Part shown: positions 20,683 through 57,799 of the stretch, piece by piece
Position numbering within the stretch: position 1 is the first letter of the stretch
Layout of the letters: every line of letters starts with the position of its first letter
Position numbers and translations under genes: made by a program
Assembly: GCA_942493285.1 (NCBI GenBank)
Contig: OW818691.1
Coordinates: 1,234,321 to 1,298,320 of the forward strand
Length of the DNA stretch: 64,000 nucleotides
Direction of reading: 5' to 3'
Source of the DNA: an uncultured Myxococcia bacterium
GTDB taxonomy: Bacteria; Myxococcota_A; UBA9042; PHBI01
The notes under the pieces: generated by a model
The model's input: only the letters and a program-made list of their open reading frames with translations
Databases searched by the model: none
Told to the model about the DNA's origin: nothing

Positions 20683-20706
20683 TCCTTCAGAAAGGGAAGT
20701 GGCACC

Positions 20707-37059: not shown

Positions 37060-37151
37060 AACAAGCGCATCGAACTGACGCGGCCTAATCGCGATGGGGC
37101 CTATCAGCCCCATCGCGATTGATCGGCCGCGCAGCTCATGCGCAGGACGTT
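37060..37151 (+). repeat. attC-like palindrome, copy 13
   Basis: Full-consensus copy. Confidence 0.9.
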
Positions 37152-38386: not shown

Positions 38387-38388
38387 TC

Positions 38389-39567
38389 ATGGCAGGCAGA
38401 ACCCGCAGTGCTCTGTATTTCGCGGATGACAAAGACGTGCTCGACGTTCTCACTCTCGCCAAGAAGAAGATCACCCCGGCGCGACTTGTAGAACTCGGAA
38501 AGCGACGCGGTCTCCTTCTCTCTTCCGATGACTCCCGGGAGACCCTCGCCGAGCGGATCGCGAAGTTGCCATTTGACTGGACGGAGCTCGAACACCTTTT
38601 GGGTTTCGTCGACTCTGCGAGCAGGGCTGAAAAATTGTCGGTTCACTCTTTCCTCGCAACGGTGGCCCCGGCTGACCTCAAAGACGCCGTCGAAGCTACT
38701 AAGGTTGCACGCCAAGACCTTCGCGGAGAGGTGTTCTCGATCTCGACCGTTGGAAACACCACTACCGTCTCGGTGAAATACACGGAATTGGACCCCAATC
38801 GTACTCGCCTCGTGCAGCGGACCGAGCGCGAGTTCAGTATGGAAATCCTCCAGACCTCCGAGGGATTTAAGGTTCGCCATCAGGCGCAAGAGCGCGCCGA
38901 TGACGTCAGGAACGAGATTCTCAACAAACTCATCGAGCTCACGAAGCCTCCCGCCCCGCCAGAGGCCCGCCCAATCGAGCTTTCGTCGATCCGTAGTCCG
39001 CGACACCGCACGAATTTCTTTGTCCAGCTCATGAAGCTCCCAGGCTTCGAGCTTGAAGACGTCGTTGTCGTAAACGGTGCCATATTGGACGACGACGCTG
39101 ACAATGACGACAATGACGAGGCATTTGACCCCGGACTCACCAACCACGTTCGCCAAGTAGCCCTCCGTGGGGGCAAGCTACTCGACTCCAAGGAGTACGC
39201 AGAGCTCTTTAAGGAGGAGACTGGCCGCTTCATCAGCTCAGTCATCTGGCGTGCGAATGAGCAGAAGGGAGATAGGACCCGCGTCGAGATCGAGGCCGGA
39301 TTCGGCAATGCCGTGAATGCTACCGATTTCGCCTTCTCTATTCGGAAGGCTTGGGTCCGCAATTCCAGTGGAGACATCAAGAAGACCAAGGTTCAGAACA
39401 CCGAGCGCCTGGTTCTCGAGAAGAGACTTGCGCCGATCCTTGAGAAGGCTGCTGATGACGCCGTCGCAAATGTGCTCAGGGATGCCTCTGCCGACACAGA
39501 AGATGTCGTTGAAGCGCTCGCCGCTGCATCCGAAGGTGTCTCCTCCTCCGACGGTGGTTCCAAATGA
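38389..39567 (+). CDS. Hypothetical protein, gene 2 of the three-gene operon
   Basis: 392 aa; start 3 bp after upstream stop; acidic low-complexity stretch DDDADNDDNDE; no recognised motif. Confidence 0.45.
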   Translation: MAGRTRSALYFADDKDVLDVLTLAKKKITPARLVELGKRRGLLLSSDDSRETLAERIAKLPFDWTELEHLLGFVDSASRAEKLSVHSFLATVAPADLKDAVEATKVARQDLRGEVFSISTVGNTTTVSVKYTELDPNRTRLVQRTEREFSMEILQTSEGFKVRHQAQERADDVRNEILNKLIELTKPPAPPEARPIELSSIRSPRHRTNFFVQLMKLPGFELEDVVVVNGAILDDDADNDDNDEAFDPGLTNHVRQVALRGGKLLDSKEYAELFKEETGRFISSVIWRANEQKGDRTRVEIEAGFGNAVNATDFAFSIRKAWVRNSSGDIKKTKVQNTERLVLEKRLAPILEKAADDAVANVLRDASADTEDVVEALAAASEGVSSSDGGSK

Positions 39568-40241
39568 AAGCAGCTTGGTGCTGTTGGTACTCTGCGGCTC
39601 TGACCGCGGTCGACTTCAGCTCGCTTCCTGCCGCGCTTAGGAGCTGGAGTTCTCGGGATGTCGAAGGGCGTGTTCGGTTGGCTAACGCACGACGCGATAG
39701 TCTGTCAGGCAGCTATTCTCTGCGACAGGACTGGACCGAACGAGTTGCCGGGGCCGATGGACTATTCGAGGACGCAGAGATTCCCAGAGTTCGAATTCTC
39801 TCTGTCCAGTTCCGCCTTAGCACCACGTACCCACAAGTCGAGCTATGGGGCGCTCGCTCAGCAGGCCGTCTTCTGCTCAAGGAACTCGCGAGCCTTCTAC
39901 CTTCGGCCTGCCCGGCTCCGATACCTCTACAGCCGATTGACTGGTTTGGAGCCATTGAGGCCGGCCATGAGGTTCGAACCGTCGGAATGGTGTCAGCACA
40001 GATTCCACTATCATCAAGCGTCGTAATGAGGGCGCACTTCGACGGGACGACCGACATTCGTCCGCTCCTGTCCAAGAAGTTCCCCGCCCTTCTAAAGTCA
40101 CCACGGAAGCTTGTCGTCCAGATCCAGAAGAGCACGGGCTTTTCCCAGGTGGAACTCGGAACTAACGCCAGCGCTCGGGTGCCGCCGAATGACGAAGAGT
40201 CGCGTGCCCTGCTCCGGTCTGCAATTGCCACCCTCGTCTAA
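39564..40241 (+). CDS. Hypothetical protein, gene 3 of the three-gene operon
   Basis: 225 aa; ATGA start/stop overlap with gene 2. Confidence 0.4.
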   Translation: MKAAWCCWYSAALTAVDFSSLPAALRSWSSRDVEGRVRLANARRDSLSGSYSLRQDWTERVAGADGLFEDAEIPRVRILSVQFRLSTTYPQVELWGARSAGRLLLKELASLLPSACPAPIPLQPIDWFGAIEAGHEVRTVGMVSAQIPLSSSVVMRAHFDGTTDIRPLLSKKFPALLKSPRKLVVQIQKSTGFSQVELGTNASARVPPNDEESRALLRSAIATLV

Positions 40242-40298
40242 CGTCAGTCCCAACTCGACTTCTTGCGCTCAAGCAACGGACCTACCGCAGCGCCGCCC

Positions 40299-40390
40299 AA
40301 CAAGCGCATCGAACTGACGCGGCCTAATCGCGATGGGGCCTATCAGCCCCATCGCGATTGATCGGCCGCGCAGCTCATGCGCAGGACGTT
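40299..40390 (+). repeat. attC-like palindrome, copy 14
   Basis: Full-consensus copy. Confidence 0.9.
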
Positions 40391-40447
40391 GTCCCGCGAA
40401 GCCTGCTCCGTTCTCAGCTGGATTGACTGCATAGCCTCTTCCCCTCT

Positions 40448-40700
40448 CAGCTGGACTCACCATCATCCATCCTCGGGGTGGACTCACCATCATCCGTCCT
40501 CGGGGTGGACTCACCATCATCTGTCCTCGGGGTGCACTCACCATCATCCGTCCTCGGGCTCGAGTCACCATCAGCCGTCCTCGGGTTGGACTCACCATCA
40601 TCCATCCTCGGGCTCGACTCGCCGTCGTTCATTCTCGAGGTCGACTCACCACCATTCACCATCGGTCTTCGGACTGGGCTCGCCGTCGTTCATTCTCGGA
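40448..40700. repeat. 27-bp tandem repeat (GGTGGACTCACCATCATCCGTCCTCGG, ~10 units)
   Basis: Period 27 counted; starts ~55 bp after attC. Confidence 0.85.
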
Positions 40701-40759
40701 TGTGGCAATTCGGCTCCGTTGCGCACTCGCCGAACAGTCGGCACGCAGCGGACGCGGAA

Positions 40760-41620
40760 TCGATGGCGTGCTAATTTGCGATGAGATGGCTTGGTGTTAG
40801 CACGCATGTTTCCCCGCCGGACTCGTTCGATCGCAACCTCGGATGTGGACTTGAGGATCGACAATCCAAGAGCCTCACTTTCGGCGAGAAGACCTTCAGC
40901 GTGAAGCGCACGTCAAGTCGCGCGGGCCACTTTGCGATGAGAAGGCTTGGTGTTAGCACGTGTACCTCGATTCAGGGCTCTGCGTCGCGCACTTCCGTCG
41001 TGCACTCGGCGAACCACTCGGGTGCATGTTGAATCGGGGGCGTGCTAATTTACGATGAGAAGACTTGGTGTTAGCACGCGTGCCTCCTCGCCGAACTCCT
41101 TTGGTCTCATCCTCCCGGTACCTGCTGACGTCGGCTTGCCGCCCCTCGGTCGCTCGGCTCCGATGTGCACTCGCTGAACAGTTGGCGCGCGGTCCTCGTA
41201 GAATCGGGGGCGTGCTAATTTACGATGAGAAGACTTGGTGTTAGCACGCCTGCTTCCCCGCCGAACTCGTGCCGTCTCATCCTCCCCGTGCCCGCCGATG
41301 TCAGCTTGCCGACCCTCGGTCGCCCGGCTCCGATGCGCACTCGCTGAACAGTTGGCGCCCGGTCCTCGTAGAATCGGGGGCGTGCTAATTTACGATGAGA
41401 AGACTTGGTGTTAGCACGCCTGCTTTCCCGCCGAACTCGTGCGGTCTCATCCTCCCGGTGCCCGCCGAAGTCGGCTTGCCGCCCCTCGGTCGCTCGGCTC
41501 CGATGCGCACTCGCCGAACAGTTGAAGCGCGGTGCGTGTTGAATCGGGCGCGCGCTAATTTACGATGAGAAGACTTGGTGTTAGCTCGCGTGCTTTCTCG
41601 CCGAACTCGTACGGTAGCAG
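40760..41620. repeat. ~170-bp tandem repeat (5-6 units), each with a conserved 39-bp hairpin GCGTGCTAA-N21-TTAGCACGC
   Basis: Hairpin copies at ~40766, 40925, 41041, 41211, 41381, 41551; last four exactly 170 bp apart; no credible ORF. Confidence 0.85.
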
Positions 41621-41640
41621 AGCCACCTTCCATCCCCGCG

Positions 41641-41850
41641 TTGGACTGGCCATCGCTCATTCTCGGGCAGCCTCACGAGCGCGAGCTCTGGCTCGGACTC
41701 ACTGTCGTCCATTCTCAGGTGGCGCTCACCATCGTTGATTCTCGGGGCTGGGTTGAACGCACCACCTCCATTCTCCGAGGTGGACTCGCCATCGTTCAAT
41801 CTCGAGGTGGACTCGCCATCGTTCAATCTCGAGGTGGACTCGCCATGCGT
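41641..41850. repeat. 27-bp tandem repeat (GGTGGACTCGCCATCGTTCAATCTCGA family)
   Basis: Same family as 40448-40700. Confidence 0.75.
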
Positions 41851-42157
41851 GGCTGTCGTGTGCGGAATGTCGTTTGTACAGATTTGCCCCGCCGAGACCC
41901 GTGGCTCACTCCTCGTGGAGTCTTAGAGCCACCGGAGGGTAGGGCGGCTGCCAGGCGTCGACTACTTCTCCCCGCCACGACTCCCGCTCCCACCACCCCG
42001 CCGCACTCCGCCTCGCCTGTATCCGACCGCACCTCGCCAGGCTCCACCTGCGGTCTGCCAGGAACCGCTCCTCCTCGACTCAAGACCCAAATCTCGCAAT
42101 TACCTGAAGCACTTCTCTCCCTTCATCGCGCCAACTCCCGCGTGGCTTCGCGGGGAC

Positions 42158-42249
42158 AACAAGCGCATCGAACTGACGCGGCCTAATCGCGATGGGGCCT
42201 ATCAGCCCCATCGCGATTGATCGGCCGCGCAGCTCATGCGCAGGACGTT
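42158..42249 (+). repeat. attC-like palindrome, copy 15
   Basis: Full-consensus copy. Confidence 0.9.
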
Positions 42250-42357
42250 GTCCGGCGTGCGCACTCAGAACTGGTTGCACTTCAGCGACGCCCCGCGCCT
42301 GGTATCTCCCCACCCCTTCCTTCATCGGCGCTAACCGTCTTCTCGGGAGACGCTCCC

Positions 42358-42712
42358 CTCTGAGGTTGATGGCGTTCTGGAGGTCGCGCAGCGCGACGTT
42401 GACGCCTCGGCTCTGTCGCCGTCGCTCCTTTCTGCGCTTGTCGGCATCTCTCCCTCTGGGGTTGAATGTCGCTCTGGAGGTCCTGCCCGACGTTGACGCC
42501 TCGGTCACCGACGCTCTCGTCCGGCGCTCCTGTCGGCGGACGTTCGTCTCTGGGCTGGATGTCGCTCTTGAGGTCGCGGCGCGTCGTTGTGGTCCTCCTG
42601 GGAGCCTTCCCGACCGCTTGGCGCCTTGCCCTCAGCCCCTTCTGTCCCATCCGTGCGACACTTTGGGACGGTTTGGGACGGTTTGGGACAGCTATGGGAC
42701 AGTTTGGGGTTG
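42358..42712. repeat. ~95-bp degenerate direct repeats (x2.5) followed by 10-bp GGGACRGTTT decamer repeats (x5)
   Basis: Visible repeated blocks TCTGRGGTTGAWTGTCGCTCTKGAGGTC...GACGTTGACGCCTCGG; decamers at 42655-42712; upstream of the diverged IS91-family transposase. Confidence 0.6.
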
Positions 42713-42884
42713 GCTTCACGTAGGCGTGATGCGGTCTTCATGGCTGGCATGGTTTTTGGCAAGAGCTCGGGTCCTCCAACTCAGGGACCTGAACATCTTG
42801 CCGCAATCGAGCCCTTCGACCTCAGCCATCTCCCTGTCTCTTGCTGACGTTCTTCGGCGGTTTGGTGCGAGGTACCGTTCGCGC

Positions 42885-43994
42885 ATGCGTGGGAGTTTGC
42901 CAGAGGAGCATCGGACTGCGATGCGGATGATCGAGAAGTGCCGCACGCCTGCTCTTGGCGGTCATGTTCTGGAGTGCGCGACGTGTGAGGGTGAGCAGGG
43001 GTATGCGTTCAACTCGTGCAATCATCGCTCGTGTCCGAAGTGCATGAGGGAGGCGTCAGCGAAATGGGTTGCAGCTCGGCACGAGGAAGTCCTCCCAGTG
43101 CCGTACTTCCATGTGGTTTTCACGGTGCCGCAGGAGCTGAACGCCATCGTTCGTGACGAGCAGCGGAAGCTCTATCCATTGTTGATGAAGGCGGCCGGGC
43201 AGGCCCTGGTCTCCATCGGGAAGTTGCCTGAGAACCTGGGTGCGACGCCGGCGGTGATGACGTCGCTGCACACGTCTTCGAATACACTCGTGTATCACCT
43301 CCATGTTCACTGTCTGGTTTCGGCTGGCGGTTTGGACGGGGAGGGGAATTGGAAGGCCTCGAAGTCCGAGACACTTGCCCCAACGCGCGCCCTTGGTGCC
43401 AGGTTCCGGTCTCGGGTACTTTCGCTGATGAAGTCAGCGGTGAAGGACCTCAGTGTCCCCGAGGCCGTGCTCAAGAAGGACTGGCAAGTCTACCTCGAGC
43501 TTCCCCACCACGGCACTCCGGCGTTGCTTGAGTACCTCAGTCGTCCGCTTCACTGCGGGCCGTTGTCGGAGTATCGCCTCGAGTCCATGACGGACGAGGA
43601 TGTGGTGTTCCGGTACCAGAAGAGTGGCGACCGGACCTGGCGCACGATGCGGTTGTCTGGACACGAGTTCCTTCGTCGGTTTCTGCAACACGTATGGCCC
43701 AGCGGTGTGCACCGGGTTCACTACTGTGGTCTGTGGCGTCGGAGGTGTCGTGAACAGCTTCGAGCTCTGCGCGCGCTCCTTCTCGGGTCAGCCCCCCCGG
43801 CACCGGCCGCCGCCCCAGTAGCAGCGCGTGCTGACGGGGATGTGCCCTCCGCTGACCTCGAGGTACCCCACTGGCTCAAGTGCCCGCACTGCGCCGGGAC
43901 GCGAGTCGTCGTCGCGCACTTCCGCGCAGGAGCGAAGCTGCCTCCGCTGACGCCACGCGGGTGGGGGGTAATCTCGCCGGAGCCACCGTCGTAG
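42885..43994 (+). CDS. IS91-family transposase, diverged second type (N-terminus may start earlier at a non-ATG codon)
   Basis: ALGGHVLECATCEGEQGYAFNSCNHRSCPKCM, VPYFHVVFTVP, HLHVHCLV; aligns along its length with the 35459-36637 transposase but with different sequence; 600-aa ORF-track call starts inside the attC repeat and is an artefact. Confidence 0.6.
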   Translation: MRGSLPEEHRTAMRMIEKCRTPALGGHVLECATCEGEQGYAFNSCNHRSCPKCMREASAKWVAARHEEVLPVPYFHVVFTVPQELNAIVRDEQRKLYPLLMKAAGQALVSIGKLPENLGATPAVMTSLHTSSNTLVYHLHVHCLVSAGGLDGEGNWKASKSETLAPTRALGARFRSRVLSLMKSAVKDLSVPEAVLKKDWQVYLELPHHGTPALLEYLSRPLHCGPLSEYRLESMTDEDVVFRYQKSGDRTWRTMRLSGHEFLRRFLQHVWPSGVHRVHYCGLWRRRCREQLRALRALLLGSAPPAPAAAPVAARADGDVPSADLEVPHWLKCPHCAGTRVVVAHFRAGAKLPPLTPRGWGVISPEPPS

Positions 43995-44315
43995 TGCAGC
44001 TCACACACCGCTCTGAATCCCACCTCGTCCTCATGGCCTCGCGAGCGGCCGTAAGGGACTGGTCCGTCCGGAGTCGGGTCAGCGCCCCCTCCGAATGCCA
44101 ATTCTTCTCTCTGAAGGCCCGTCAAAGTCGCCTCGAGACCACCCAACTTCCAAGAACCCCCTCGTCGAGGACCGAAAGCCGTCACCGCTCGCTCGCCTTC
44201 AGCCTCCTCCCTGACCACCAGATTCCTATATATCGCATAGGGCCCAGAGGTCCCTCTCGACGGCTTGCAGAGCGGCTCTCACGCCCACCCAAAGCCCATC
44301 CAATGGGCGCCGGAC

Positions 44316-44407
44316 AACAAGCGCATCGAACTGACGCGGCCTAATCGCGATGGGGCCTATCAGCCCCATCGCGATTGATCGGCCGCGCAGCTCATGCGCA
44401 GGACGTT
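44316..44407 (+). repeat. attC-like palindrome, copy 16
   Basis: Full-consensus copy. Confidence 0.9.
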
Positions 44408-44704
44408 GTCGGGCGTGTGCGGCCGGAGCTCGTCGCTATCGAGAGGTCCCAGCGCCACGGATGCAGCCACCCGACTTAGCACTGTTCGTGCCAAACAGCC
44501 GGGCACTCGGATCCGCCTCACCCCCTAACAGAGCCTGCCAACCCGTTGCGCTCTCATCGCTCGGCGTCCCCGACGCTCGCACGATTTTCGCAGCACTGGT
44601 CCAACGTGGCGTCGAGAATGCCAAGGGCGGCAATTGTGCTCCCAGGTTCCGCGTCAGACCGAGTACGAACTCTGTGTGACATCCACCTGAACCACTGGCT
44701 TCAG

Positions 44705-45013
44705 TCAAGTTGGACGACTGAGCCAGTAGCCAGGTCGGCGCCTGCTATGCGCAACCGCGATCACTACAATCCGGTCTCCTCGCGTTTGATACACGAGCAG
44801 ATACGGAAAGGTCGCGAGGGAAATCCTGCGAATCTCGCTTCCGGCGAGGTGCTGTGATGTCCAAAGAGCACCAAGCCGCGGATTGTCGGCAATTCGTCGA
44901 GCGGCGCCCGCCACGGCATCCAGGAATCGAAGTCCAACGCCGGTCCCTCGTTCCTCATACCAGGAGGCAGCAGCGCGCAATTCATCCAGTGCGGCTTGTA
45001 GAAAAGTCAGCAC
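44705..45013 (-). CDS. ParE/RelE-family toxin
   Basis: 102 aa; ...FPYLLVYQTRGDRIVVIAVAHSRR typical ParE C-terminus. Confidence 0.6.
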   Translation of the reverse strand: MLTFLQAALDELRAAASWYEERGTGVGLRFLDAVAGAARRIADNPRLGALWTSQHLAGSEIRRISLATFPYLLVYQTRGDRIVVIAVAHSRRRPGYWLSRPT

Positions 45014-45292
45014 CTATTTGCGCAGCTCCGCCCGAAGCGCAGCAATTGCTTCGAACGCGTCGATCTCACGCGCATCTCCGGAGTCGAGCTCAGCGAGTCG
45101 CCGCTTGACTTCAATGGCCCATATCTCGTCCCACTCTTCGCCGGTCGCGTCGTTGTCCTCATCATCAAGACTTTCCAGCAGGCCAAGTGCGACCGCAGCG
45201 CGGTCCCGCGGAGTTAGCTTCAGTCCGGCGCTAAGAACATTGTTCGTGTTCAGGCCGGCATTGAGGACATTGTTGGTGGCGTCGATACCCAT
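45014..45292 (-). CDS. Addiction-module antitoxin (ParD-like / TIGR02574-type)
   Basis: LTPRDRAAVALGLLESLDDED...EEWDEIWAIEVKRRLAELDSGDAREIDAFEAIAALRAEL; abuts toxin start; start may be later than 45292. Confidence 0.45.
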   Translation of the reverse strand: MGIDATNNVLNAGLNTNNVLSAGLKLTPRDRAAVALGLLESLDDEDNDATGEEWDEIWAIEVKRRLAELDSGDAREIDAFEAIAALRAELRK

Positions 45293-45947
45293 GGCCAGGA
45301 TGGTAGCGCACGTCGGGGCATGGGCCAAGGGTGGTGTTTCGAATCCAGGCCAGGTCCACGCGCACAAACCGAGCCCATCGTCTGAACCAGCCGATCGGAC
45401 GGTAGGTTTGAAGCCTTGCCCGATTACGCGGAGAGTTGGAATCGGCGGGGTCGAGCGACTCAAGTCGCGTCCTCGCGCCGAGTGGCGACGGCGCTATGAC
45501 TGCGCCTTCTTTCTCGCGTCTCGTATTCGATGCGCGCGCTTCACGTGTAGGGCATAGGACGGGTCAAACCCTCTCAGACCCGCTAAAATGAACGACCGGC
45601 CCCCCGGGTGGGCACGTTTGGACCCGTCGGTCGGCCACCCAGCCCCCCCGGTTGGGCACGTTCGGACCCGTCGGTCGGCCTCCCGGCCCCCCGGGTGGGC
45701 ACGTCGGCCTGGTCTGTGGACTCGCCCGGACCACTGGTTGGTATGCCGAGACCCCGACCGAGGGGCGTTCGGACCAGAATCCCAGGGCCAATCGGACGCC
45801 TGTCGCGGCAGCTCCTTCGAAGTCTCCCTTTCTTTGGCCCCCTTCGCGACGGCGCCCTTTCCATCCTTGGAGCGTCGACGCATTGACATGAGCCCATGCG
45901 TGGCCTACGAGAACCCGCAAATGCCACCTCGACGGAGGACTATCGAT

Positions 45948-47288
45948 ATGACGACTCCCGCTAACGCCGCCCGAACCGCCATCGCTTTGTCGCTGTTCGT
46001 CGCCCTGTCCTCAGTTGTTCGCGTCGAGGCCGCCGAGCCGCCCCCGTCCGCCGCGCTGCAGCTCGTCCCCGCGGATGCAGAGGAGTGCCGCGATCAGCCC
46101 GTTCTCGTCGGTCAGACCACGAGGCAGCTGGGCGAGCTCTTCGATCGCGTGAGCACCCTCTTGCAACACGCCCAGATGTTGGGCTGCGCCTACCCTCGGG
46201 GGACCAGAGGGGCTTGGCCCGGCGCATACTGGGGCGAGACCCTGATCCTGGCGTACCTGGCGCGTTCGGAGTACTCTGGCGGCGATCCGGTGATGGTCGC
46301 CTTCGCCTTGAACGCGTACTCTCGCCTCATGGTGCGCCCGGAGGCCCCTTTCCGGGAGCAACGCAAGAACATCGCCGCCGTCCTTGCAGGGTACCACCGC
46401 CTGATGCCGCTCGACGTGATCACCAGGGCGGTCCGCGCAGCGCTCCCAGTGGCACTCGCAGAGGTGTTGATCGCGGGCTGCGCGGAGGGATTCGATGACG
46501 CGCGCGCCCAGGGGCCCGAAGACGCGCTTTGGACGGCATATGAGACGTACGCCACCGAGGCGGCCCCGGTCGCGGTCCTCCTCCGGGAGTTGAGGGCTCA
46601 AGCCGCGAGCGGGGCGACGGATGCCGTGCTTGCACGACTCGACAGCGAGCGCCAAACGCTCCTCGACGCCGCGAAGGACCGCGAGGCAGCCCTGCGCGCT
46701 CCCGCATTTCGGGAGCTCACCGGTATCGCGCGAGCCATCTCCAGCACTTCGGGGGCCCAGCGCCCCTATGAGCAGTTGCTCCCCGAGCCATTGCTTCCCA
46801 CCTGGATGCTGGCCACGACCAAGGACCGTCAGCGAAGGAATCTTCCCTTGACCTCTTCAGCGCTGGATGGCGTCGAAATGGCGTGGCGCGTGGTCCGCGC
46901 AGGCGAGTTCAGGCGCGGCAAACCCACCCCCGGGTCAAACTTCTTTACCGCGCGCGTCAAGAAGGTCGGTCGCGACGCCGACGGGAAGTCCCTAATCGAG
47001 CTCGACAACAAGCAGACCACGTCCTATGCGGGACAGTGTCGCACTACGTTGGTCTTCGTCGACGCGGCGGGACAGGGCTGGGGCAAAGAACGGTGTAGCG
47101 GGTCAGCTGAAATCACGACCACCTCCGGCCCCCCGACGGTGACCTTGCCGACCGCGTCGGTCGCCGCACTCAAGAACGGTCGCTACGTCGAATATTTTTC
47201 GGACGAGGCAGGGGCTACCGGACATCTGGGCCGGGTCTGGGACGCGAAGTTTGACAAGCTGCTCGCCATCGGCCCTTTCCGGCTGTGA
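45948..47288 (+). CDS. Hypothetical secreted protein
   Basis: Start at Met followed by signal-peptide-like TAIALSLFVALSSVVRVEAA; 446 aa. Confidence 0.45.
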   Translation: MTTPANAARTAIALSLFVALSSVVRVEAAEPPPSAALQLVPADAEECRDQPVLVGQTTRQLGELFDRVSTLLQHAQMLGCAYPRGTRGAWPGAYWGETLILAYLARSEYSGGDPVMVAFALNAYSRLMVRPEAPFREQRKNIAAVLAGYHRLMPLDVITRAVRAALPVALAEVLIAGCAEGFDDARAQGPEDALWTAYETYATEAAPVAVLLRELRAQAASGATDAVLARLDSERQTLLDAAKDREAALRAPAFRELTGIARAISSTSGAQRPYEQLLPEPLLPTWMLATTKDRQRRNLPLTSSALDGVEMAWRVVRAGEFRRGKPTPGSNFFTARVKKVGRDADGKSLIELDNKQTTSYAGQCRTTLVFVDAAGQGWGKERCSGSAEITTTSGPPTVTLPTASVAALKNGRYVEYFSDEAGATGHLGRVWDAKFDKLLAIGPFRL

Positions 47289-47581
47289 GCACGTCCCGAT
47301 GCTCCTAGCTCTTCAAATGGCGAAATGGCCATGCATTTGCGCGCACTCACTCTCAAGTATTGCGTCACGTCTGGGAGCTGACGTTCCAAACGCATTCGCC
47401 AGGAGGCAGTTTCAATCGATTGTCGACAGGGCTCGATCTACACACGCGATTAGCGTTTGAGAGTCCGCCGCATTTGTTCTGCCGTTCGGATCGCGACCTC
47501 ACAGGCCGGCCAGAGCCTTCACGACAGCGCCCCCAGGATTGCGCACCGCAATTCGCACATCTTTTCGGAACGGCGCCCGAC

Positions 47582-47669
47582 AACAAGCGCATCGACCATG
47601 ACACCGCCTAATCGCGGGGGCGATGCGCCCCCGCGATTGATCGGCGGTGCAGGTCATGCGCAGGACGTT
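47582..47669 (+). repeat. attC-like palindrome, copy 17: 88-bp variant with compensatory changes (AATCGCGGGGGCG-atg-CGCCCCCGCGATT)
   Basis: Both hairpin arms changed so pairing is kept; arms gcatcgaccatgacacc / ggcggtgcaggtcatgcg also co-vary. Confidence 0.85.
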
Positions 47670-48068
47670 GTCCCGCACGAGGCCTGCTCGTTCCCTCGCC
47701 TTCCTCACCGCCTTCCTCCGAGAGCGACCCGCATCCCTCAAGGCCGCTGCTCCGCCTGCAGGCCCCTGTCGTCTCCTTGCCCTACACGCCGGACTCGCTC
47801 CTGGACGGACGTGCATCCCTCAAGCCCCCGATGCCGGGTCGGTTCCTGGCCCTACGCCTGGCGTTGCTCACTGGGCCGCATCCCCCTCGCAGGGTTGCTC
47901 CTCGCGCTCGCGGTTGAGGTCGCCAGAGTGTCCCAATCGGAGAGACACCTGGCACACTTGGGACAGTTGCGGGACACTTTCGCGAGAAATAGCTGCGTGT
48001 TTTCAAGGGGCTGAGGTTGGCCCGGCTCTTGCTCATGGGTTCGCGTTTCCCAACACGAGAACCCGGTT

Positions 48069-49247
48069 ATGCACACGGAACCTACACGGCTCATCTCTCC
48101 ATCCGTTCAGGGGGTGATTCGGCAGTTCGCGCCCAGCTACATCGCGAAGCATGGCAAGGGGTTACCCCTGTCGCATCGCAAGGCGCTTCGCCTCCTCTCT
48201 CAGTGTCGAACGGTCGCGCTTGGCGGTCACGTGGTCGAGTGCGGCAACTGCAAGGTGCAGGACTACACCTACCATTCTTGCGGCCACCGTTCGTGCCCTC
48301 GCTGCATGTCGGAGGACTGTGATGCGTGGCTTGGCGCTCGCCGGAGTGAGCTGTTGCCGGTTCCTTACTTCCACGTGGTGTACACGGTGCCGGAGGGGCT
48401 GAACGGCGTGGTGCGGAGTCATCAAGGGGAGCTGTATCCAGTGCTGATGCAGGCGGCTGGTAACTCGCTTCTCGCAGTTGCAGCCGCGCCTGAGAACCTG
48501 GGGGGTAGGGTAGGGGTGATGTCGACGCTGCACACGTCGTCGAGTGCGCTGGCGTACCACCTTCACGTGCACTGCCTTGTCCCGGCGGGGTCGGTCGATG
48601 CAGAGGGCGAGTGGCATGACGCGAAGGACTCGCGCCTTGGGTCAGAGAGCGCGCTGGGCAAGGCTTTCCGGGACAAGGTCGGTTCGATGATGAAGGCCGC
48701 AGTCCCCGACGTTGCGCTGCCGGACGGGGTGTTCGACCTCGCGTGGAAGGTGCATCTCGAGGTACCGCAGCACGGGGCGGAGACGGTGCTTCGGTATCTG
48801 GGTCGCTCGGTTCACCGCGGCCCGATGAGTGACCACCGCATCGTGTCTGTGACCGAGACCCATGTCGTGTTCAAGTATCGGGACAAGGACCGCACGAAGG
48901 CCAAGACGATGTGCTTGGACGGCCACGAGTTCCTGCGCCGCTTCCTGCAGCACGTCTGGCCCGACCGGGTGCACAAGGTGCGCTACGCCGGTCTGTGGAG
49001 TCGGGGCTGTCGTCCGCAGCTCCGCGCACTCAGGCAGCGACTCCTGGCAGCCATGCAAGTCGAGCCACCTCCCGCGGTTGGGGAACCGAAACCGCTGCTA
49101 CCCCCTGAGCCCGTCCTACCTCCGTGGCGTCGCTGCCCTCACTGCCAGGCGGAGCGGTTCATCGTGGCTCGCTTCAAGGCGGGAACCACCCCACCACCCC
49201 TGGTGGACCCGCTGCAGGGCACACTACCCGGGATAGACCCTCCCTGA
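48069..49247 (+). CDS. IS91-family transposase (copy 2)
   Basis: 392 aa, few substitutions relative to copy 1. Confidence 0.8.
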   Translation: MHTEPTRLISPSVQGVIRQFAPSYIAKHGKGLPLSHRKALRLLSQCRTVALGGHVVECGNCKVQDYTYHSCGHRSCPRCMSEDCDAWLGARRSELLPVPYFHVVYTVPEGLNGVVRSHQGELYPVLMQAAGNSLLAVAAAPENLGGRVGVMSTLHTSSSALAYHLHVHCLVPAGSVDAEGEWHDAKDSRLGSESALGKAFRDKVGSMMKAAVPDVALPDGVFDLAWKVHLEVPQHGAETVLRYLGRSVHRGPMSDHRIVSVTETHVVFKYRDKDRTKAKTMCLDGHEFLRRFLQHVWPDRVHKVRYAGLWSRGCRPQLRALRQRLLAAMQVEPPPAVGEPKPLLPPEPVLPPWRRCPHCQAERFIVARFKAGTTPPPLVDPLQGTLPGIDPP

Positions 49248-49669
49248 TGGCGAAGCGACGGCCCTTCCGAGTATCCCGTATCCCGTCACGACCTCACGCA
49301 CGAACGTGCGGTCGTCTCGCAGAGATCTGCCCTGTGAACGCCACCGCAAGCCACTCCACGACCGATTTCGAGCGTCGGGAGCGTTCCACGCACCACGAGT
49401 CCTCCAGACTGCCGATCAGACTGCTCTACGGACCCGAAACCGAGGCCTCTTTGACCCGAAAAGGAGGCGATTCGGCTCCCCTCAGAGGGGCCTGCGAGGG
49501 GGCAGAACATATAAAATGCAGTAGGTCACCTCGACCGCTACTGGCAAGGGTCTGCGAGCATTCGCCGTCGTCTCGAGGACTGGCCTTTCTTGGCCACCGC
49601 ACTCACCGCAGGCCCCCGAAGCCCAATCAGCTGGAGTCGAGGCGCTAGCGACTTCAGACGTGCGGGGAC

Positions 49670-49761
49670 AACAAGCGCATCGAACTGACGCGGCCTAATC
49701 GCGATGGGGCCTATCAGCCCCATCGCGATTGATCGGCCGCGCAGCTCATGCGCAGGACGTT
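49670..49761 (+). repeat. attC-like palindrome, copy 18
   Basis: Full-consensus copy. Confidence 0.9.
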
Positions 49762-50137
49762 GTCCGGCGCCACGAGCTATACGCGATCAAGAGCTCGACG
49801 CCCGAGTTTCCCCTTCAACCGGTCTCCGTCCATCGTTCTACCCTTTCTCCAGGCGCTCATCGGCACCTTTGGAATGGGTCAGCTCGGCACCAGCCCCATC
49901 CTTCGCGGGGCACTTCGGCTTTGGCTCCGGGGCGGCTCTACGAAGCACATGTTGTCCGTCGGCTTCCTATGGGTTGCTCTGATGCTGCTCAAGACTGCCG
50001 TGTGTGTGGAGTATCTTGGTCGATTCACCCGCTGGAGTGAGTGACCGTCAGCCTGAATTTGCGGGTGCGGTGCGACGAGACCAGGCCTGTTAGGATTTCC
50101 CGTTGCGTGCGGCGAAACCGGGTGCTAATCACCGCGC

Positions 50138-51280
50138 ATGGTGCGGCGAATGTTCATCCATGAGCTCCCGGGCTGGCCGGGTCTGACTTGGGACGCGGGC
50201 GTCTTGGCCAACGCTCTTGGGCGGGTCCGGCACCGACAAGGTCGCCTGCTTGGGCGCATGGAGGCGCTAGGCTTTGACCTTCGCGACGAAGCGAGCGTCA
50301 TGGTCCTCACACGCGACGTGGTTGAGTCATCCGCGATTGAGGGGGAGCATCTCGACGCGACAGATGTGCGTTCCTCCATTGCACGGAGGCTGGGGCTGCC
50401 GCTCGCGGGATTGGCGTCGCCTCCAAGCCAGCGAGTGGAGGGCATCGTCGAGGTGCTGTTGGATGCGACGCAACGCGCGCGCAAAGGCCTGACCCAAGAG
50501 CGCCTATGGGGCTGGCATGCGGCGTTGTTTCCGACGGGCTTCAGTGGAATGCGTCGAATCACGGTAGGCGCTTGGCGGCCGCCTGAGGCAGGGCCAATGC
50601 AGGTAGTGTCCGGTCCAGTGGGACGGGAGCGCCTGCATTTCGAGGCTCCGGCCGCAGAACGACTCGCAACAGAGATGGGAGAGTTCCTTGCGTGGTTCGA
50701 GTCGTCAACGCAAGCTGCTGATGAACTCGATCCAGTGCTCATTGCCGCGATTGCCCACCTTTGGTTCATCACGATTCACCCGTTCGAGGATGGTAATGGC
50801 CGAATAGGGCGGGCTATAGCGGACATGGCGTTGGCACGCGCCGATGGGATTCCGCAGCGGTTCTATAGTCTCTCGTCGCAGCTCATGACAGAGCGCAAGG
50901 ACTACTACCGTGAGCTCGAAGCAGCTCAGCGCGGCAGTCTCGACATCACGGACTGGCTCGCGTGGTTCCTGGGCTGCTTGGACCGCGCCATTGACCGTTC
51001 CGATGATCTCGTGGCGGGTGTCATGAGGCGTGCGAAGATTTGGAGGCGAGCAGAGGAACAACCTGGGGTGAACGCTCGCCAGCGAACAGTCATTGAGCGC
51101 CTCCTGGGGGACTTCAAGGGGCACCTGACATCATCGAAGTATGCGACATTCGCAAAGTGTTCAAGTGACACGGCTCTACGCGATATCGAGAACTTGGTTG
51201 AACGAGGGATCCTTGTCCGCAATCCAAGTGGGGGACGGAGCACGAGCTATCGACTGGCAGAGGCCGAGTTGTTCTCATGA
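50138..51280 (+). CDS. Fic-family protein (AMPylase-type Fic/Doc toxin)
   Basis: Canonical Fic motif HPFEDGNGRIGR; 380 aa with N-terminal extension. Confidence 0.75.
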   Translation: MVRRMFIHELPGWPGLTWDAGVLANALGRVRHRQGRLLGRMEALGFDLRDEASVMVLTRDVVESSAIEGEHLDATDVRSSIARRLGLPLAGLASPPSQRVEGIVEVLLDATQRARKGLTQERLWGWHAALFPTGFSGMRRITVGAWRPPEAGPMQVVSGPVGRERLHFEAPAAERLATEMGEFLAWFESSTQAADELDPVLIAAIAHLWFITIHPFEDGNGRIGRAIADMALARADGIPQRFYSLSSQLMTERKDYYRELEAAQRGSLDITDWLAWFLGCLDRAIDRSDDLVAGVMRRAKIWRRAEEQPGVNARQRTVIERLLGDFKGHLTSSKYATFAKCSSDTALRDIENLVERGILVRNPSGGRSTSYRLAEAELFS

Positions 51281-51454
51281 GGTCAGGCGTGGACTGAAGT
51301 GCAGGAGCGGCCGCGCGACCATCCCAAACTGGCTGTGTGAAGGTCGTTCGACTTCCTCCGACGAGCCGCTCGTCCCAAGGGGCGTTCCATCCGAGACTCA
51401 GCGCCATCGCAAGAGGCCTAACGCCCTCAAGAGCAGTGTTCCGTGGCGCCCGAC

Positions 51455-51546
51455 AACAAGCGCATCGAACTGACGCGGCCTAATCGCGATGGGGCCTATC
51501 AGCCCCATCGCGATTGATCGGCCGCGCAGCTCATGCGCAGGACGTT
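51455..51546 (+). repeat. attC-like palindrome, copy 19
   Basis: Full-consensus copy. Confidence 0.9.
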
Positions 51547-51945
51547 GTCCCGCACGAGGCCTGCTCGTTCCCTCGCCTTCCTCACCGCCTTCCTCCGAGA
51601 GCGACCCGCATCCCTCAAGGCCGCTGCTCCGCCTGCAGGCCCCTGTCGTCTCCTTGCCCTACACGCCGGACTCGCTCCTGGACGGACGTGCATCCCTCAA
51701 GCCCCCGATGCCGGGTCGGTTCCTGGCCCTACGCCTGGCGTTGCTCACTGGGCCGCATCCCCCTCGCAGGGTTGCTCCTCGCGCTCGCGGTTGAGGTCGC
51801 CAGAGTGTCCCAATCGGAGAGACACCTGGCACACTTGGGACAGTTGCGGGACACTTTCGCGAGAAATAGCTGCGTGTTTTCAAGGGGCTGAGGTTGGCCC
51901 GGCTCTTGCTCATGGGTTCGCGTTTCCCAACACGAGAACCCGGTT

Positions 51946-53124
51946 ATGCACACGGAACCTACACGGCTCATCTCTCCATCCGTTCAGGGGGTGATTCGGC
52001 AGTTCGCGCCCAGCTACATCGCGAAGCATGGCAAGGGGTTACCCCTGTCGCATCGCAAGGCGCTTCGCCTCCTCTCTCAGTGTCGAACGGTCGCGCTTGG
52101 CGGTCACGTGGTCGAGTGCGGCAACTGCAAGGTGCAGGACTACACCTACCATTCTTGCGGCCACCGTTCGTGCCCTCGCTGCATGTCGGAGGACTGTGAT
52201 GCGTGGCTTGGCGCTCGCCGGAGTGAGCTGTTGCCGGTTCCTTACTTCCACGTGGTGTACACGGTGCCGGAGGGGCTGAACGGCGTGGTGCGGAGTCATC
52301 AAGGGGAGCTGTATCCAGTGCTGATGCAGGCGGCTGGTAACTCGCTTCTCGCAGTTGCAGCCGCGCCTGAGAACCGGGGGGGTAGGGTAGGGGTGATGTC
52401 GACGCTGCACACGTCGTCGAGTGCGCTGGCGTACCACCTTCACGTGCACTGCCTTGTCCCGGCGGGGTCGGTCGATGCAGAGGGCGAGTGGCATGACGCG
52501 AAGGACTCGCGCCTTGGGTCAGAGAGCGCGCTGGGCAAGGCTTTCCGGGACAAGGTCGGTTCGATGATGAAGGCCGCAGTCCCCGACGTTGCGCTGCCGG
52601 ACGGGGTGTTCGACCTCGCGTGGAAGGTGCATCTCGAGGTACCGCAGCACGGGGCGGAGACGGTGCTTCGGTATCTGGGTCGCTCGGTTCACCGCGGCCC
52701 GATGAGTGACCACCGCATCGTGTCTGTGACCGAGACCCATGTCGTGTTCAAGTATCGGGACAAGGACCGCACGAAGGCCAAGACGATGTGCTTGGACGGC
52801 CACGAGTTCCTGCGCCGCTTCCTGCAGCACGTCTGGCCCGACCGGGTGCACAAGGTGCGCTACGCCGGTCTGTGGAGTCGGGGCTGTCGTCCGCAGCTCC
52901 GCGCACTCAGGCAGCGACTCCTGGCAGCCATGCAAGTCGAGCCACCTCCCGCGGTTGGGGAACCGAAACCGCTGCTACCCCCTGAGCCCGTCCTACCTCC
53001 GTGGCGTCGCTGCCCTCACTGCCAGGCGGAGCGGTTCATCGTGGCTCGCTTCAAGGCGGGAACCACCCCACCACCCCTGGTGGACCCGCTGCAGGGCACA
53101 CTACCCGGGATAGACCCTCCCTGA
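51946..53124 (+). CDS. IS91-family transposase (copy 3)
   Basis: 392 aa. Confidence 0.8.
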   Translation: MHTEPTRLISPSVQGVIRQFAPSYIAKHGKGLPLSHRKALRLLSQCRTVALGGHVVECGNCKVQDYTYHSCGHRSCPRCMSEDCDAWLGARRSELLPVPYFHVVYTVPEGLNGVVRSHQGELYPVLMQAAGNSLLAVAAAPENRGGRVGVMSTLHTSSSALAYHLHVHCLVPAGSVDAEGEWHDAKDSRLGSESALGKAFRDKVGSMMKAAVPDVALPDGVFDLAWKVHLEVPQHGAETVLRYLGRSVHRGPMSDHRIVSVTETHVVFKYRDKDRTKAKTMCLDGHEFLRRFLQHVWPDRVHKVRYAGLWSRGCRPQLRALRQRLLAAMQVEPPPAVGEPKPLLPPEPVLPPWRRCPHCQAERFIVARFKAGTTPPPLVDPLQGTLPGIDPP

Positions 53125-53546
53125 TGGCGAAGCGACGGCCCTTCCGAGTATCCCGTATCCCGTCACGACCTCACGCACGAACGTGCGGTCGTCTCGCAGA
53201 GATCTGCCCTGTGAACGCCACCGCAAGCCACTCCACGACCGATTTCGAGCGTCGGGAGCGTTCCACGCACCACGAGTCCTCCAGACTGCCGATCAGACTG
53301 CTCTACGGACCCGAAACCGAGGCCTCTTTGACCCGAAAAGGAGGCGATTCGGCTCCCCTCAGAGGGGCCTGCGAGGGGGCAGAACATATAAAATGCAGTA
53401 GGTCACCTCGACCGCTACTGGCAAGGGTCTGCGAGCATTCGCCGTCGTCTCGAGGACTGGCCTTTCTTGGCCACCGCACTCACCGCAGGCCCCCGAAGCC
53501 CAATCAGCTGGAGTCGAGGCGCTAGCGACTTCAGACGTGCGGGGAC

Positions 53547-53638
53547 AACAAGCGCATCGAACTGACGCGGCCTAATCGCGATGGGGCCTATCAGCCCCAT
53601 CGCGATTGATCGGCCGCGCAGCTCATGCGCAGGACGTT
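53547..53638 (+). repeat. attC-like palindrome, copy 20
   Basis: Full-consensus copy. Confidence 0.9.
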
Positions 53639-53756
53639 GTCCCGCGAAGCCTGCTCCTTTCACAGCTGGACTGGCCGCGAAGCCTGCTCCTTTCACAGCT
53701 GGACTGTCCGCGACGCCTTCTCCGCTCTCACTTGGAGTCTCTGTCATCCATGCGCG

Positions 53757-53980
53757 AGGTGGACTCGCCGTCATCTATCCTCGGGGTGGACTCGCTGTCG
53801 TCCATCCTCGGGGTGGACTCGCCGTCATCCATCCTCGGGGTGGACTCGCCGTCATCCATCCCCGGGGTGGACTCGTCGTCGTTCATCCTCGAGGTGGACT
53901 CACCGTCGTTCATTCTCGGATTGGGCTCGTCGCCGTTCATTCTCGAGGTCGACTTACCGTCGTTTATTCTCGAGGTTCAC
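53757..53980. repeat. 27-bp tandem repeat (GGTGGACTCGCCGTCATCCATCCTCGG, ~9 units)
   Basis: Same family as cassette-14 repeats; preceded by a 36-bp direct duplication (53643-53712). Confidence 0.85.
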
Positions 53981-54002
53981 CGGGAAGCCTCCTCCGCTCT
54001 CA

Positions 54003-54450
54003 GCTGGACTTGGGATGTGACAGCCATGGCTGGACTTGGGATGTGACAGCCACGGCTGGACATGACAGCCACGGCTGGACATCGGAGGTGACAGCCACGG
54101 CTGGACATCGGAGGTGACAGCCACGGCTGGACATCGGATGTGACAGCCACGGCTGGACTTGGGATGTGACAGCAATGGCTGGACTTCGGATGTGACAGCC
54201 CCGGCTGGACATCGGAGGTGACAGCCACGGCTGGACTTGGGAGGTGACAGCCACGGCTGGACTTGGGATGTGACAGCCACGGCTGGACTTGGGATGTGAC
54301 AGCCACGGCTGGACCTGGGAGGTGACAGCCACGGCTGGACCTGGGAGGTGACAGCCACGGCTGGACTTGGGAAGTGACAGACGTGGCTGGGCTTGGGTTG
54401 AGATAGCCTCGGCTGGACTTGAGATGTGACAGCCATGCCTGGGCTTGGTC
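54003..54450. repeat. 26-bp tandem repeat (GGCTGGACTTGGGATGTGACAGCCAC, ~17 units)
   Basis: Period 26 counted. Confidence 0.85.
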
Positions 54451-54490
54451 ATAGCGGCTCGAGCCTGTGGGGCTCGGGTGGTTCGTGATG

Positions 54491-55192
54491 CTATTCGAGT
54501 TGGGTTGTGCAACGCCAGACACCGGCAGACCGGTGGAACGCAGCAATTCCATACTCAAGCCAATCGATCGGCAGGACGTGATCGACGAGGCTAATTTGGA
54601 ACGCGAAGCCTTGTACGCCCATCGCGCCCTGAATGTCTGCAGCGTAGCCGCCGACCTTGGTGTGAGAGTCGGGCGAGAGTGAGGTTGGAAGTGTTCCCAG
54701 AAACTCGAGAAACTCCTCCAGCTCTTCCTCCGACATCGCCGCAACGTCGTCCAACTGACTCAGCGCTTCCTCGACATCACCATATTGCGGGCACTCCTCA
54801 TGAAGCGTCCAAGAGAGAAGCGTAATTGGTGTCGTATCCTCGTCCGCCGGCGTTGGAAGCGGCTGCAAGTCAGTAAGGCTCGTGTATTCGCGAACCACCC
54901 ATCCGTCACCATTCTCACCTTCACCCGGCATCTCGTCGTCTTGAGGGAGGAAGAGCTGGATCGCAGCCAACCCTATTAGGCTGGTCGGCACTGCTGGCAA
55001 CTCGTCGATGCGAATCCAGAGGCAGGGCAAAAGGGGCCTATCAAACCACATCGGGCGAATCTCGCCAGCTAGTCCGAATCCAGGTCCGCCAAGGCACGAC
55101 TGGAGCGATGCCTGCTTTCCTTCGCTGAAGTTTGCGACCGACGATGGTCGCAGTAACCGCTTGGCAAGGTTCGAGAAGAGGTTTCGGTTCAT
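54491..55192 (-). CDS. Hypothetical protein
   Basis: 233-aa ORF; acidic stretches; no recognised motif. Confidence 0.35.
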   Translation of the reverse strand: MNRNLFSNLAKRLLRPSSVANFSEGKQASLQSCLGGPGFGLAGEIRPMWFDRPLLPCLWIRIDELPAVPTSLIGLAAIQLFLPQDDEMPGEGENGDGWVVREYTSLTDLQPLPTPADEDTTPITLLSWTLHEECPQYGDVEEALSQLDDVAAMSEEELEEFLEFLGTLPTSLSPDSHTKVGGYAADIQGAMGVQGFAFQISLVDHVLPIDWLEYGIAAFHRSAGVWRCTTQLE

Positions 55193-55567
55193 GGTCGAGA
55201 TGTCCAGTGGGCCGTAGTGTCGTGGTCGGTCGGCGCGTCGGAAGAACGTGTGCTTTGACTATCCGAGTTTGCCTCGGGAGACAAGGTGGCTCCGGTCAAA
55301 GAGTCTGCAAACAGATATGTGCAAGTGCAGGGTGATAGTAGGAGCGAATGAGATGCGACGCCCGCAAAGCGACTGTCGGGCAAGCTGTTCCGCGTGCACT
55401 CAGAAGGCTCAGGGCCAGAGTCTACAGTCATGTCGGGCGCACCGTCGTGACGGTGCCCTATCGGCCCGGGAGGGCGCGAACCCGGGGGGCACAACTCGCC
55501 TTCGCGCGTCGCCCTCCAACCATTCTCTCCTCTCATCGCGCCAATGCATGCGTGGCTTCGCGGGGAC

Positions 55568-55659
55568 AACAAGCGCATCGAACTGACGCGGCCTAATCGC
55601 GATGGGGCCTATCAGCCCCATCGCGATTGATCGGCCGCGCAGCTCATGCGCAGGACGTT
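55568..55659 (+). repeat. attC-like palindrome, copy 21
   Basis: Full-consensus copy. Confidence 0.9.
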
Positions 55660-56058
55660 GTCCCGCACGAGGCCTGCTCGTTCCCTCGCCTTCCTCACCG
55701 CCTTCCTCCGAGAGCGACCCGCATCCCTCAAGGCCGCTGCTCCGCCTGCAGGCCCCTGTCGTCTCCTTGCCCTACACGCCGGACTCGCTCCTGGACGGAC
55801 GTGCATCCCTCAAGCCCCCGATGCCGGGTCGGTTCCTGGCCCTACGCCTGGCGTTGCTCACTGGGCCGCATCCCCCTCGCAGGGTTGCTCCTCGCGCTCG
55901 CGGTTGAGGTCGCCAGAGTGTCCCAATCGGAGAGACACCTGGCACACTTGGGACAGTTGCGGGACACTTTCGCGAGAAATAGCTGCGTGTTTTCAAGGGG
56001 CTGAGGTTGGCCCGGCTCTTGCTCATGGGTTCGCGTTTCCCAACACGAGAACCCGGTT

Positions 56059-57237: not shown

Positions 57238-57659
57238 TGGCGAAGCGACGGCCCTTCCGAGTATCCCGTATCCCGTCACGACCTCACGCACGAACGTGCG
57301 GTCGTCTCGCAGAGATCTGCCCTGTGAACGCCACCGCAAGCCACTCCACGACCGATTTCGAGCGTCGGGAGCGTTCCACGCACCACGAGTCCTCCAGACT
57401 GCCGATCAGACTGCTCTACGGACCCGAAACCGAGGCCTCTTTGACCCGAAAAGGAGGCGATTCGGCTCCCCTCAGAGGGGCCTGCGAGGGGGCAGAACAT
57501 ATAAAATGCAGTAGGTCACCTCGACCGCTACTGGCAAGGGTCTGCGAGCATTCGCCGTCGTCTCGAGGACTGGCCTTTCTTGGCCACCGCACTCACCGCA
57601 GGCCCCCGAAGCCCAATCAGCTGGAGTCGAGGCGCTAGCGACTTCAGACGTGCGGGGAC

Positions 57660-57751
57660 AACAAGCGCATCGAACTGACGCGGCCTAATCGCGATGGGGC
57701 CTATCAGCCCCATCGCGATTGATCGGCCGCGCAGCTCATGCGCAGGACGTT
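57660..57751 (+). repeat. attC-like palindrome, copy 22
   Basis: Full-consensus copy. Confidence 0.9.
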
Positions 57752-57799
57752 GTCCCGCCGAGCCCTGTTCCGCGTCCGCTCGTCTTGTTCATCTACCGG

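Follow-up and report, generated by a model that had tools for sequence, protein, structure and literature searches.

It was concluded that the repeats of the studied DNA were very probably attC sites of an integron, and that the window (the whole 64-kb stretch of DNA that was analysed) lay inside a very large cassette array of the chromosome, representing either a sedentary chromosomal integron or a cluster of attC sites with the integrase encoded elsewhere. The array was located at positions 311..60124 of the + strand and consisted of 23 attC sites and 22 complete cassettes (1,785-6,392 bp). The sites were imperfect palindromes of 96-100 nt, all in a single orientation and spaced by 1.8-6.4 kb. 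The array ran off the window at the left end, and the final 3.9 kb of the window yielded no attC. A CRISPR array was rejected, as the repeats were separated by 1,785-6,392 bp with genes between them and not by tens of bases.

The array and the anatomy of its sites

The sequence from AAC to GTT was identical in 17 of the 23 copies; copies 1 and 10 shared one variant, and copies 4, 6, 7 and 17 were each distinct. A covariance model, R1, was built from the alignment of the close-family sites (A2, see below), and its scan of the window returned exactly 23 sites, all on one strand, with no hidden extra site. The consensus copies and their R1 scores, all on the + strand, were as follows: copy 2 (2513..2612, 119.8 bits), copy 3 (6196..6295, 119.6 bits), copy 8 (19253..19352, 119.7 bits), copy 9 (25645..25744, 119.7 bits), copy 11 (30625..30724, 116.5 bits), copy 12 (34964..35063, 116.6 bits), copy 14 (40295..40394, 110.8 bits), copy 15 (42154..42253, 119.6 bits), copy 19 (51451..51550, 119.0 bits), copy 21 (55564..55663, 119.6 bits) and copy 23, the last in the window (60025..60124, 118.6 bits). 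Copies 13 (37056..37155, 109.5 bits), 18 (49666..49765, 119.6 bits), 20 (53543..53642, 119.6 bits) and 22 (57656..57755, 119.6 bits) were consensus sites of cassettes with an IS91-family transposase, and copy 16 (44312..44411, 118.6 bits) was that of a cassette with a second type of such transposase. Copy 5 (10303..10402, 111.3 bits) had the consensus core and the R'' box GGCGAAC.

A possible inverted site, the minus-strand CGCAGGACGTT at ~63353, lay inside a gene and was scored by the model at E=0.25, hence it was regarded as a chance match. No Rfam family matched the repeats, and no match was obtained in the viral contigs scanned with the attC pattern. In plasmids, the best match to the cassette DNA, the attC or the transposase protein did not exceed 37% identity. 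The 15-mer CATGCGCAGGACGTT was too short a pattern for the genome contigs: the 116 hits among the matches listed were all due to chance, and none was related.

On the bottom strand, the 5' side of the consensus site comprised R' GGACAAC, an unpaired GTCCT, GCGCAT, GAGCTG, CGCGGCC and an internal loop; the terminal hairpin had 14 bp (13-15 bp across sites), and the 3' side comprised GGCCGCG, an unpaired T, CAGTTC, an unpaired G, ATGCGC, TT and R'' GTTGTCY. The AAC triplet was present in 22 of the 23 sites, copy 7 having GGC instead, and GTT was present in all 23. The fit to the wider R' consensus RYYYAAC was loose in the window (GGACAAC, AGCCAAC). Counted from the outer end of R'', the extrahelical bases were a G at 16 and, beyond a 6-bp stem, a T at 23 (24 in copy 17), and each of the two bases was retained in 19 of 24 distinct sites. 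The central spacer, GTCCT opposite TT (5/2 nt), remained unpaired in every fold. The terminal hairpin varied in both sequence and length while the arms were constant, and the site lengths were inside the attC range of 57-141 bp. [quoted passage not shown]

The two strands of the sites were not equivalent. All 16 non-Watson-Crick cells that were still pairable formed G·T in the bottom strand, where the top strand would have A·C, and they fell in two columns only. In 24 of 31 sites, the bottom strand had the greater stability; its mean advantage was 1.08 kcal/mol (Wilcoxon p=0.003 for sequences that are related). The published advantage of attC bottom strands is 1.28 kcal/mol (PMC5027507). These data are supportive, and not proof, of the bottom strand being the favoured folded strand.

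Further, the ends of the cassettes were compared. The 10 nt located 3' of GTT at one site agreed with the reverse complement of the 10 nt located 5' of AAC at the next site at 7.4 of 10 positions on average, compared with 5.65 +/- 0.29 for permuted flank pairings (0/10000) and 5.6/10 for the flank of the site's own R''. Such complementary cassette ends are what a site-specific exchange at G|TT leaves behind.

Relatives of the sites were collected by a metagenome scan, in which the outer arms served as anchors and the centre was left free, resulting in 17 contigs (L117-L133). Thirteen of these originated from one sample (Ga0247843) and contained members of this family, including new variants (L120, L122, L125, L130 and L132), the stems of which differed at several positions, on both arms. 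The other four, from three further samples (L118, L128, L124), shared the outer (R/L) arms alone, the centres being unrelated; these sites were 63-93 nt long with canonical GCCTAAC/GTTAGGC boxes, and their cassettes measured 0.4-1.3 kb, with about ten sites in 6.5 kb. Loci of this type are an ordinary integron array. Additional sites (L137, L141-L145) were reached via transposase homologs. Overall, the relatives were 63-102 nt long, and the divergent ones retained the attC layout with a different sequence. The attC family had not been characterised before and occurred in no fewer than seven sources (metagenomes or assemblies).

A chimeric site, the arms of which came from two attC types and did not pair, was observed at L118:680-772 and L128:2738-2830. 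Since it was found in two different metagenomes, it was not an assembly accident, and it may have resulted from a deletion between two neighbouring attC sites.

The integron integrase, attI and Pc were found neither in the window nor in the 17 metagenome loci, and tblastn with IntI1 (an approximate query) yielded no hit at E<0.5 in the same sequences. The absence of the integrase was expected, because the array ran off the left edge of the window, where the integrase would be located for this orientation. Other features counted against attC sites: the cassettes were long, the R' box was loose, the spacer was 5/2, copy 7 lacked the triplet, several cassette genes were on the opposite strand, and five cassettes encoded a Y2/HUH transposase, which belongs to a class acting on single-stranded hairpins.

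The GC skew was negative across most of the array (cumulative -1.14 over the whole window). If replicative, this skew would place the bottom strands on the lagging-strand template, but it is an unreliable guide in an array of acquired genes. In sedentary integrons, the bottom strands have been reported on the leading-strand template (PMC11023631).

Transposase cassettes and cargo

An IS91-family (Y2/HUH) transposase was encoded by five of the 22 complete cassettes, and the remaining 17 were devoid of it. Four cassettes of the first type (2,096 bp; 35060-37155, 47670-49765, 51547-53642 and 55660-57755), with genes for a 392-aa protein at 35459-36637, 48069-49247, 51946-53124 and 56059-57237, were 97.4% identical to each other. 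The cassette of the second type was located at 42250-44411 with the ORF at 42192-43994. The family score of the transposase was 321 bits against a cutoff of 125, and the Pfam domains Y2_Tnp and Zn_Tnp_IS91 were present, as in a full-length IS91-family protein. At least nine distinct variants of the transposase occurred in the source genome. Homologs of 54-59% identity (L137, L141-L145) from at least three other assemblies lay between co-oriented sites of the same attC family and had different neighbours. Those of 44-47% identity were ordinary IS91 elements located beside a small tyrosine recombinase and lacking attC.

Three loci with distant transposase homologs and a 280-aa tyrosine recombinase (L134, L138 and L139) were rejected as integrons: the recombinase scored 164 bits against the integron-integrase cutoff of 265 bits, and no attC was present.

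A non-coding block of ~300 nt was kept 3' of the transposase gene across five lineages (window 36638-36960 and 43995-44311; L137:1809-2159; L141:3130-3450; L145:4706-5046), containing a short inverted repeat and an A+T-rich ATATAA/CATAG motif. The block lies inside the cassette. Given its conservation, the element probably has an end of its own there, apart from the attC, and the block may be this rolling-circle end. In L140, an IS21-type element (rve and IstB; 1470-4688) was observed between the gene of a transposase cassette and a shortened attC (78 nt, 42 bits), apparently having been inserted into or beside the attC.

HUH enzymes act on single-stranded hairpins, and the sequence-only reading had named HUH-transposase hairpins, next to attC sites, as examples of a site recognised as folded single-stranded DNA. 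Following the former example, the hairpins could be the origin and terminus sites of the array-encoded IS91-family rolling-circle transposases, with the other cassettes being non-autonomous and mobilised in trans. The class of the enzyme, its presence in five cassettes, the number of its variants in the source genome and the attC-flanked homologs in other assemblies would agree with such a role, but we considered it highly improbable. The five transposase genes had to be set against 23 repeats and 17 cassettes lacking a transposase, and the IS91 relatives of 44-47% identity had no such sites. Divergent relatives of the sites formed dense arrays of short cassettes (L128), and the conserved block inside the cassette suggested a separate end of the IS. 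To our knowledge, the site anatomy of AAC/GTT, G16/T23 bulges and 6-bp spacing has not been described for IS91 ends. It is instead the anatomy read by integron integrases (PMC5027507). Of the two examples of a folded site, attC was upheld by the covariation and the anatomy; the HUH-transposase hairpin was not supported as the explanation, as the transposase was encoded by only five of the 22 cassettes and the repeats flanked unrelated cargo.

It was also considered that a clade of IS91-family transposases has long been resident as bona fide integron cassettes and is possibly coupled functionally to the attC hairpins. This combined proposal is rather unlikely, and the coupling itself is a speculation. 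If coupled, the transposase could produce single-stranded circles feeding the integrase pathway, or the folded attC could serve as its origin or terminus, and cassettes would be amplified and shuffled without IntI.

The mean length of the cassettes was ~2.7 kb, the longest one (6.4 kb) carrying four or five genes. Proteins of the anti-phage defence type were encoded, including a full-length PycTIR (Pycsar TIR) effector with cNMP-binding and TIR domains (10853-11773), an OLD/Gabija/AriA-like ATPase (26128-27984), a GmrSD_N/NsnA-like protein (15910-17241), an Hp2-like protein (38389-39567), a DUF6119 protein (28546-30111), a Fic protein (50138-51280) and an IrrE/HTH pair (13433-14521). Cargo of this kind (PycTIR, the OLD/Gabija-like ATPase, GmrSD_N, Fic and IrrE/HTH) is typical of chromosomal integrons.

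One interval was unusually large for a single cassette. Besides a KAS III-like gene (19666-20682), the interval 19353-25644 (6.3 kb), bounded by two attC sites and free of an internal attC according to R1, harboured three or four more ORFs in the same direction (634, 288 and 394 aa). In the cassette of 4.3 kb that is bounded by copies 11 and 12, a gene for an IS5-like DDE transposase (DUF772 and DDE_Tnp_1) was present on the - strand at 31469-32554, which looks like an insertion sequence embedded in the cassette.

Copy 17 and paired changes in the stems

Copy 17 (47578..47673, R1 score of 99.6 bits) was written from R'' to R' on the + strand, so that its recombinogenic (bottom) strand was the - strand. 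On the + strand, its R'' CGACAAC (47578-47584, with AAC at 47582-47584) and a spacer AA were followed by the left outer stem GCGCAT (47587-47592), an extrahelical C at 47593 (G on the bottom strand), the stem GACC-A-TG (47594-47600), in which A 47598 was the third extrahelical base, an extrahelical A at 47601 (T on the bottom strand), the stem CACCGCC (47602-47608) and the terminal hairpin AATCGCGGGGGCG-ATG-CGCCCCCGCGATT (47610-47638). The right arm consisted of GGCGGTG (47643-47649), CAGGTC (47650-47655) and ATGCGC (47656-47661), and ended with a spacer AGGAC and R' GTTGTCC (47667-47673, with GTT at 47667-47669).

The strings given for this copy by the sequence-only reading were found where it had placed them, the bounds 47582 and 47669 being the positions of the AAC and GTT triplets. 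Its claim that both arms were changed with the hairpin kept was borne out: compared with the consensus, six pairs (three in the outer stems and three in the terminal hairpin) were swapped on both sides and still paired. The outer arms, GCGCAT-C-GACC(A)TG-A-CACCGCC against GGCGGTG-CAGGTC-ATGCGC, likewise differed in a paired manner as claimed. The only pair lost was the loop-closing one; the loop was shortened from 6 nt to 3 nt, and one additional unpaired base (A 47598) was present. Both strands of copy 17 folded at approximately -40 kcal/mol (z approximately -8 against shuffles), which was equal to the consensus.

The other variants were located on the + strand as well. Copies 1 (311..410, 115.6 bits) and 10 (28243..28342, 115.7 bits) carried GCGTAT/ATACGC and GACCTG/CAGGTC, and copy 6 (13027..13126, 114.7 bits) had the same arms with a spacer AC. 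There were thus two matched changes in each of the three copies, and GCGTAT...GACCTG was indeed paired with CAGGTC...ATACGC, as had been reported for them from the sequence. In copy 7 (15514..15613, 103 bits), two two-sided changes converted GAACTG/CAGCTC into the compensated CAACGG/CCGCTG. A single uncompensated change (GAACGG against CAGCTC) was found in copy 4 (8215..8314, 107.1 bits), in which R' was GTTCGCC.

In copy 7, GGC replaced AAC in R'', and the match of the cassette-specific flank was down to 3/10. The loss of the triplet together with the mismatch of the flank indicates that the two cassettes adjacent to copy 7 are probably fused. The rare left arm of this copy (GCGCATACAACGGACACG) recurred in a metagenome contig (L127:6588-6615), where it was ended after 18-28 nt by unrelated sequence.

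The covariation was quantified on two alignments. The first one, A2, comprised 16 distinct close-family bottom-strand sites from the window and the metagenome contigs with a hand-written structure. Paired cells amounted to 96.5%, against 88.3 +/- 0.8 after shuffling of the partners (0/500); changes on both sides were found in 13 of 39 pairs, against 7.4 +/- 1.4 (0/500), and the covariation score was 0.246, against 0.090 (0/500). In the slid-register controls, 24-43% of the cells were paired (28-42% for A2 slid by 1-3 columns). RNAalifold, supplied with no structure, independently recovered the same helices, 12 of 32 pairs being compensatory. The second alignment, A4, comprised 24 distinct sites including the divergent relatives, of which the arms only were used and 16 pairs around the two bulges were scored; an artificial linker joined the arms, and the register was maintained by taking out the additional bulge found in sites of the copy-17 type. 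In A4, 95.1% of the cells were paired against 77.5% after shuffling, and 11 of the 16 pairs were changed on both sides (0/500). The paired changes exceeded the shuffled expectation in both alignments, and the covariation is statistically robust. These counts overstate the number of events, because the sequences are related and mosaic and the cells are not independent, but the occurrence of as many as four pair types per position in divergent lineages indicates that the changes were repeated and independent.

The mosaic nature of the copies was evident from the central hairpin of copy 17, which was joined to three outer-arm types (L117:801, L122:1077 and L131:4051); modules are therefore exchanged between sites, and many cells do not represent independent events. 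The same mosaicism, as well as the identity of 17 of the 23 sites in cassettes that were not identical (97.4% identity among the four transposase cassettes), could be read as the result of arm-to-arm copying, in which hairpin-templated repair (quasipalindrome correction) or gene conversion would generate paired changes without functional selection. Such a process would erase the asymmetric features, yet the bulges persisted together with the 5/2-nt spacer and the G·T pairs, and the architecture was retained in divergent relatives of different sequence, a position having as many as four pair types. In addition, templated repair still requires folding of a strand, and it accounts for the origin of the changes and not for the identity of the sites. 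As a full explanation it was given even less credence than a role of the hairpins as IS91 ends.

The least probable proposal was that the repeats, being intergenic, G+C-rich and strongly folded on either strand, were RNA hairpins (terminators, processing or stabilising elements) or REP/BIME-like extragenic palindromes: there was no Rfam match and no T run after the hairpin, the wobble pairs were on the strand opposite to most cassette genes, and the sites were 100 nt long and co-oriented with cassette-specific AAC/GTT flanks, whereas REP elements are of 20-40 nt, scattered, often arranged in inverted pairs and accompanied by a RAYT gene. No Y1 transposase was seen among the scanned part of the window ORFs.

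The folded-site model and known integrons

The preferred reading, integron attC sites, was modeled in the following way. Each cassette would end in an attC of ~100 nt, and the bottom (-) strand, when single-stranded, would fold into an imperfect hairpin with the R box xxxxAAC/GTTxxxx and the spacer GTCCT opposite TT. Above the spacer, the predicted hairpin would contain a 6-bp stem, the extrahelical G, a 6-bp stem, the extrahelical T, a 7-bp stem, the internal loop and the terminal hairpin. The integron integrase would read the shape of this hairpin and not its sequence, and would cut at the AAC triplet of the bottom strand, i.e., between G and TT of the top strand. If the shape is what is read, a mutation in one arm would be tolerated only with a matching change in the other arm, while the bulged bases and the spacer would remain asymmetric. 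Copy 17, with six swapped pairs, a shorter loop and a third extrahelical base, would be such a shape-preserving variant. [quoted passage not shown] From the anatomy and this literature, we infer that an IntI-type integrase would be the acting enzyme and that the sites may be currently active.

The array resembled the sedentary chromosomal integrons with Vibrio cholerae repeats (VCRs), having long co-oriented arrays of near-identical sites. Like the VCR-type attC, the sites possessed the R box with AAC/GTT, the L box, an unpaired spacer, two to three extrahelical bases and a terminal structure that was long and variable; compensatory change was present, and each cassette carried its own R'' flank, donating the bases after GTT. 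Cargo composed of toxin-antitoxin, defence and unknown genes with embedded insertion sequences is likewise known in such integrons (PMC5027507, PMC11023631), and near-identical attC sites within one sedentary integron, with a structure conserved across arrays, are documented (PMC5027507, PMC11023631, PMC8191803). Unlike in VCRs, the sequence family was AACAAGCGCAT...ATGCGCAGGACGTT and the host DNA had a G+C content of ~61%; the cassettes were 3-5 times longer than usual, some of them multigene, and the integrase and attI were not seen within the window.

The lack of the integrase within 64 kb of an attC array is shared with CALIN (cluster of attC sites lacking an integron integrase), a category of IntegronFinder, although CALIN is defined on a whole replicon, whereas here the comparison covers a 64-kb window with the array running off its edge. 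Compared with mobile-integron sites (attC-aadA7, attC-oxa2), the G16 and T23/24 bulges and the 6-bp stem between them were the same, and the three-bulge form of copy 17 resembled attC-oxa2 (PMC5027507). The attC sites of mobile integrons are mostly ~60 nt long with tiny loops and are mutually divergent, while those of the window were of 96-100 nt and nearly uniform. With IS91/ISCR elements, the array shared the full-length IS91-family transposase of five cassettes; unlike in those elements, the transposase gene was in a unit that was bounded in the same way as the other cassettes and had its own attC, and the repeats extended beyond the transposase units.

The array is a natural example of selection acting on the shape of DNA over its sequence, a principle that is already established for attC sites and incorporated in the covariance models used for their detection (PMC8352920, PMC5027507), which are the standard detector (PMC8352920). 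The understanding of integrons is not changed by the array, and copy 17 behaves as expected for attC sites. What is unusual is the size of the cassettes, the defence cargo and an IS91 cassette recurrent across lineages. The array would be useful as a source of new defence systems and as a test bed for the limits of cassette size and attC uniformity.
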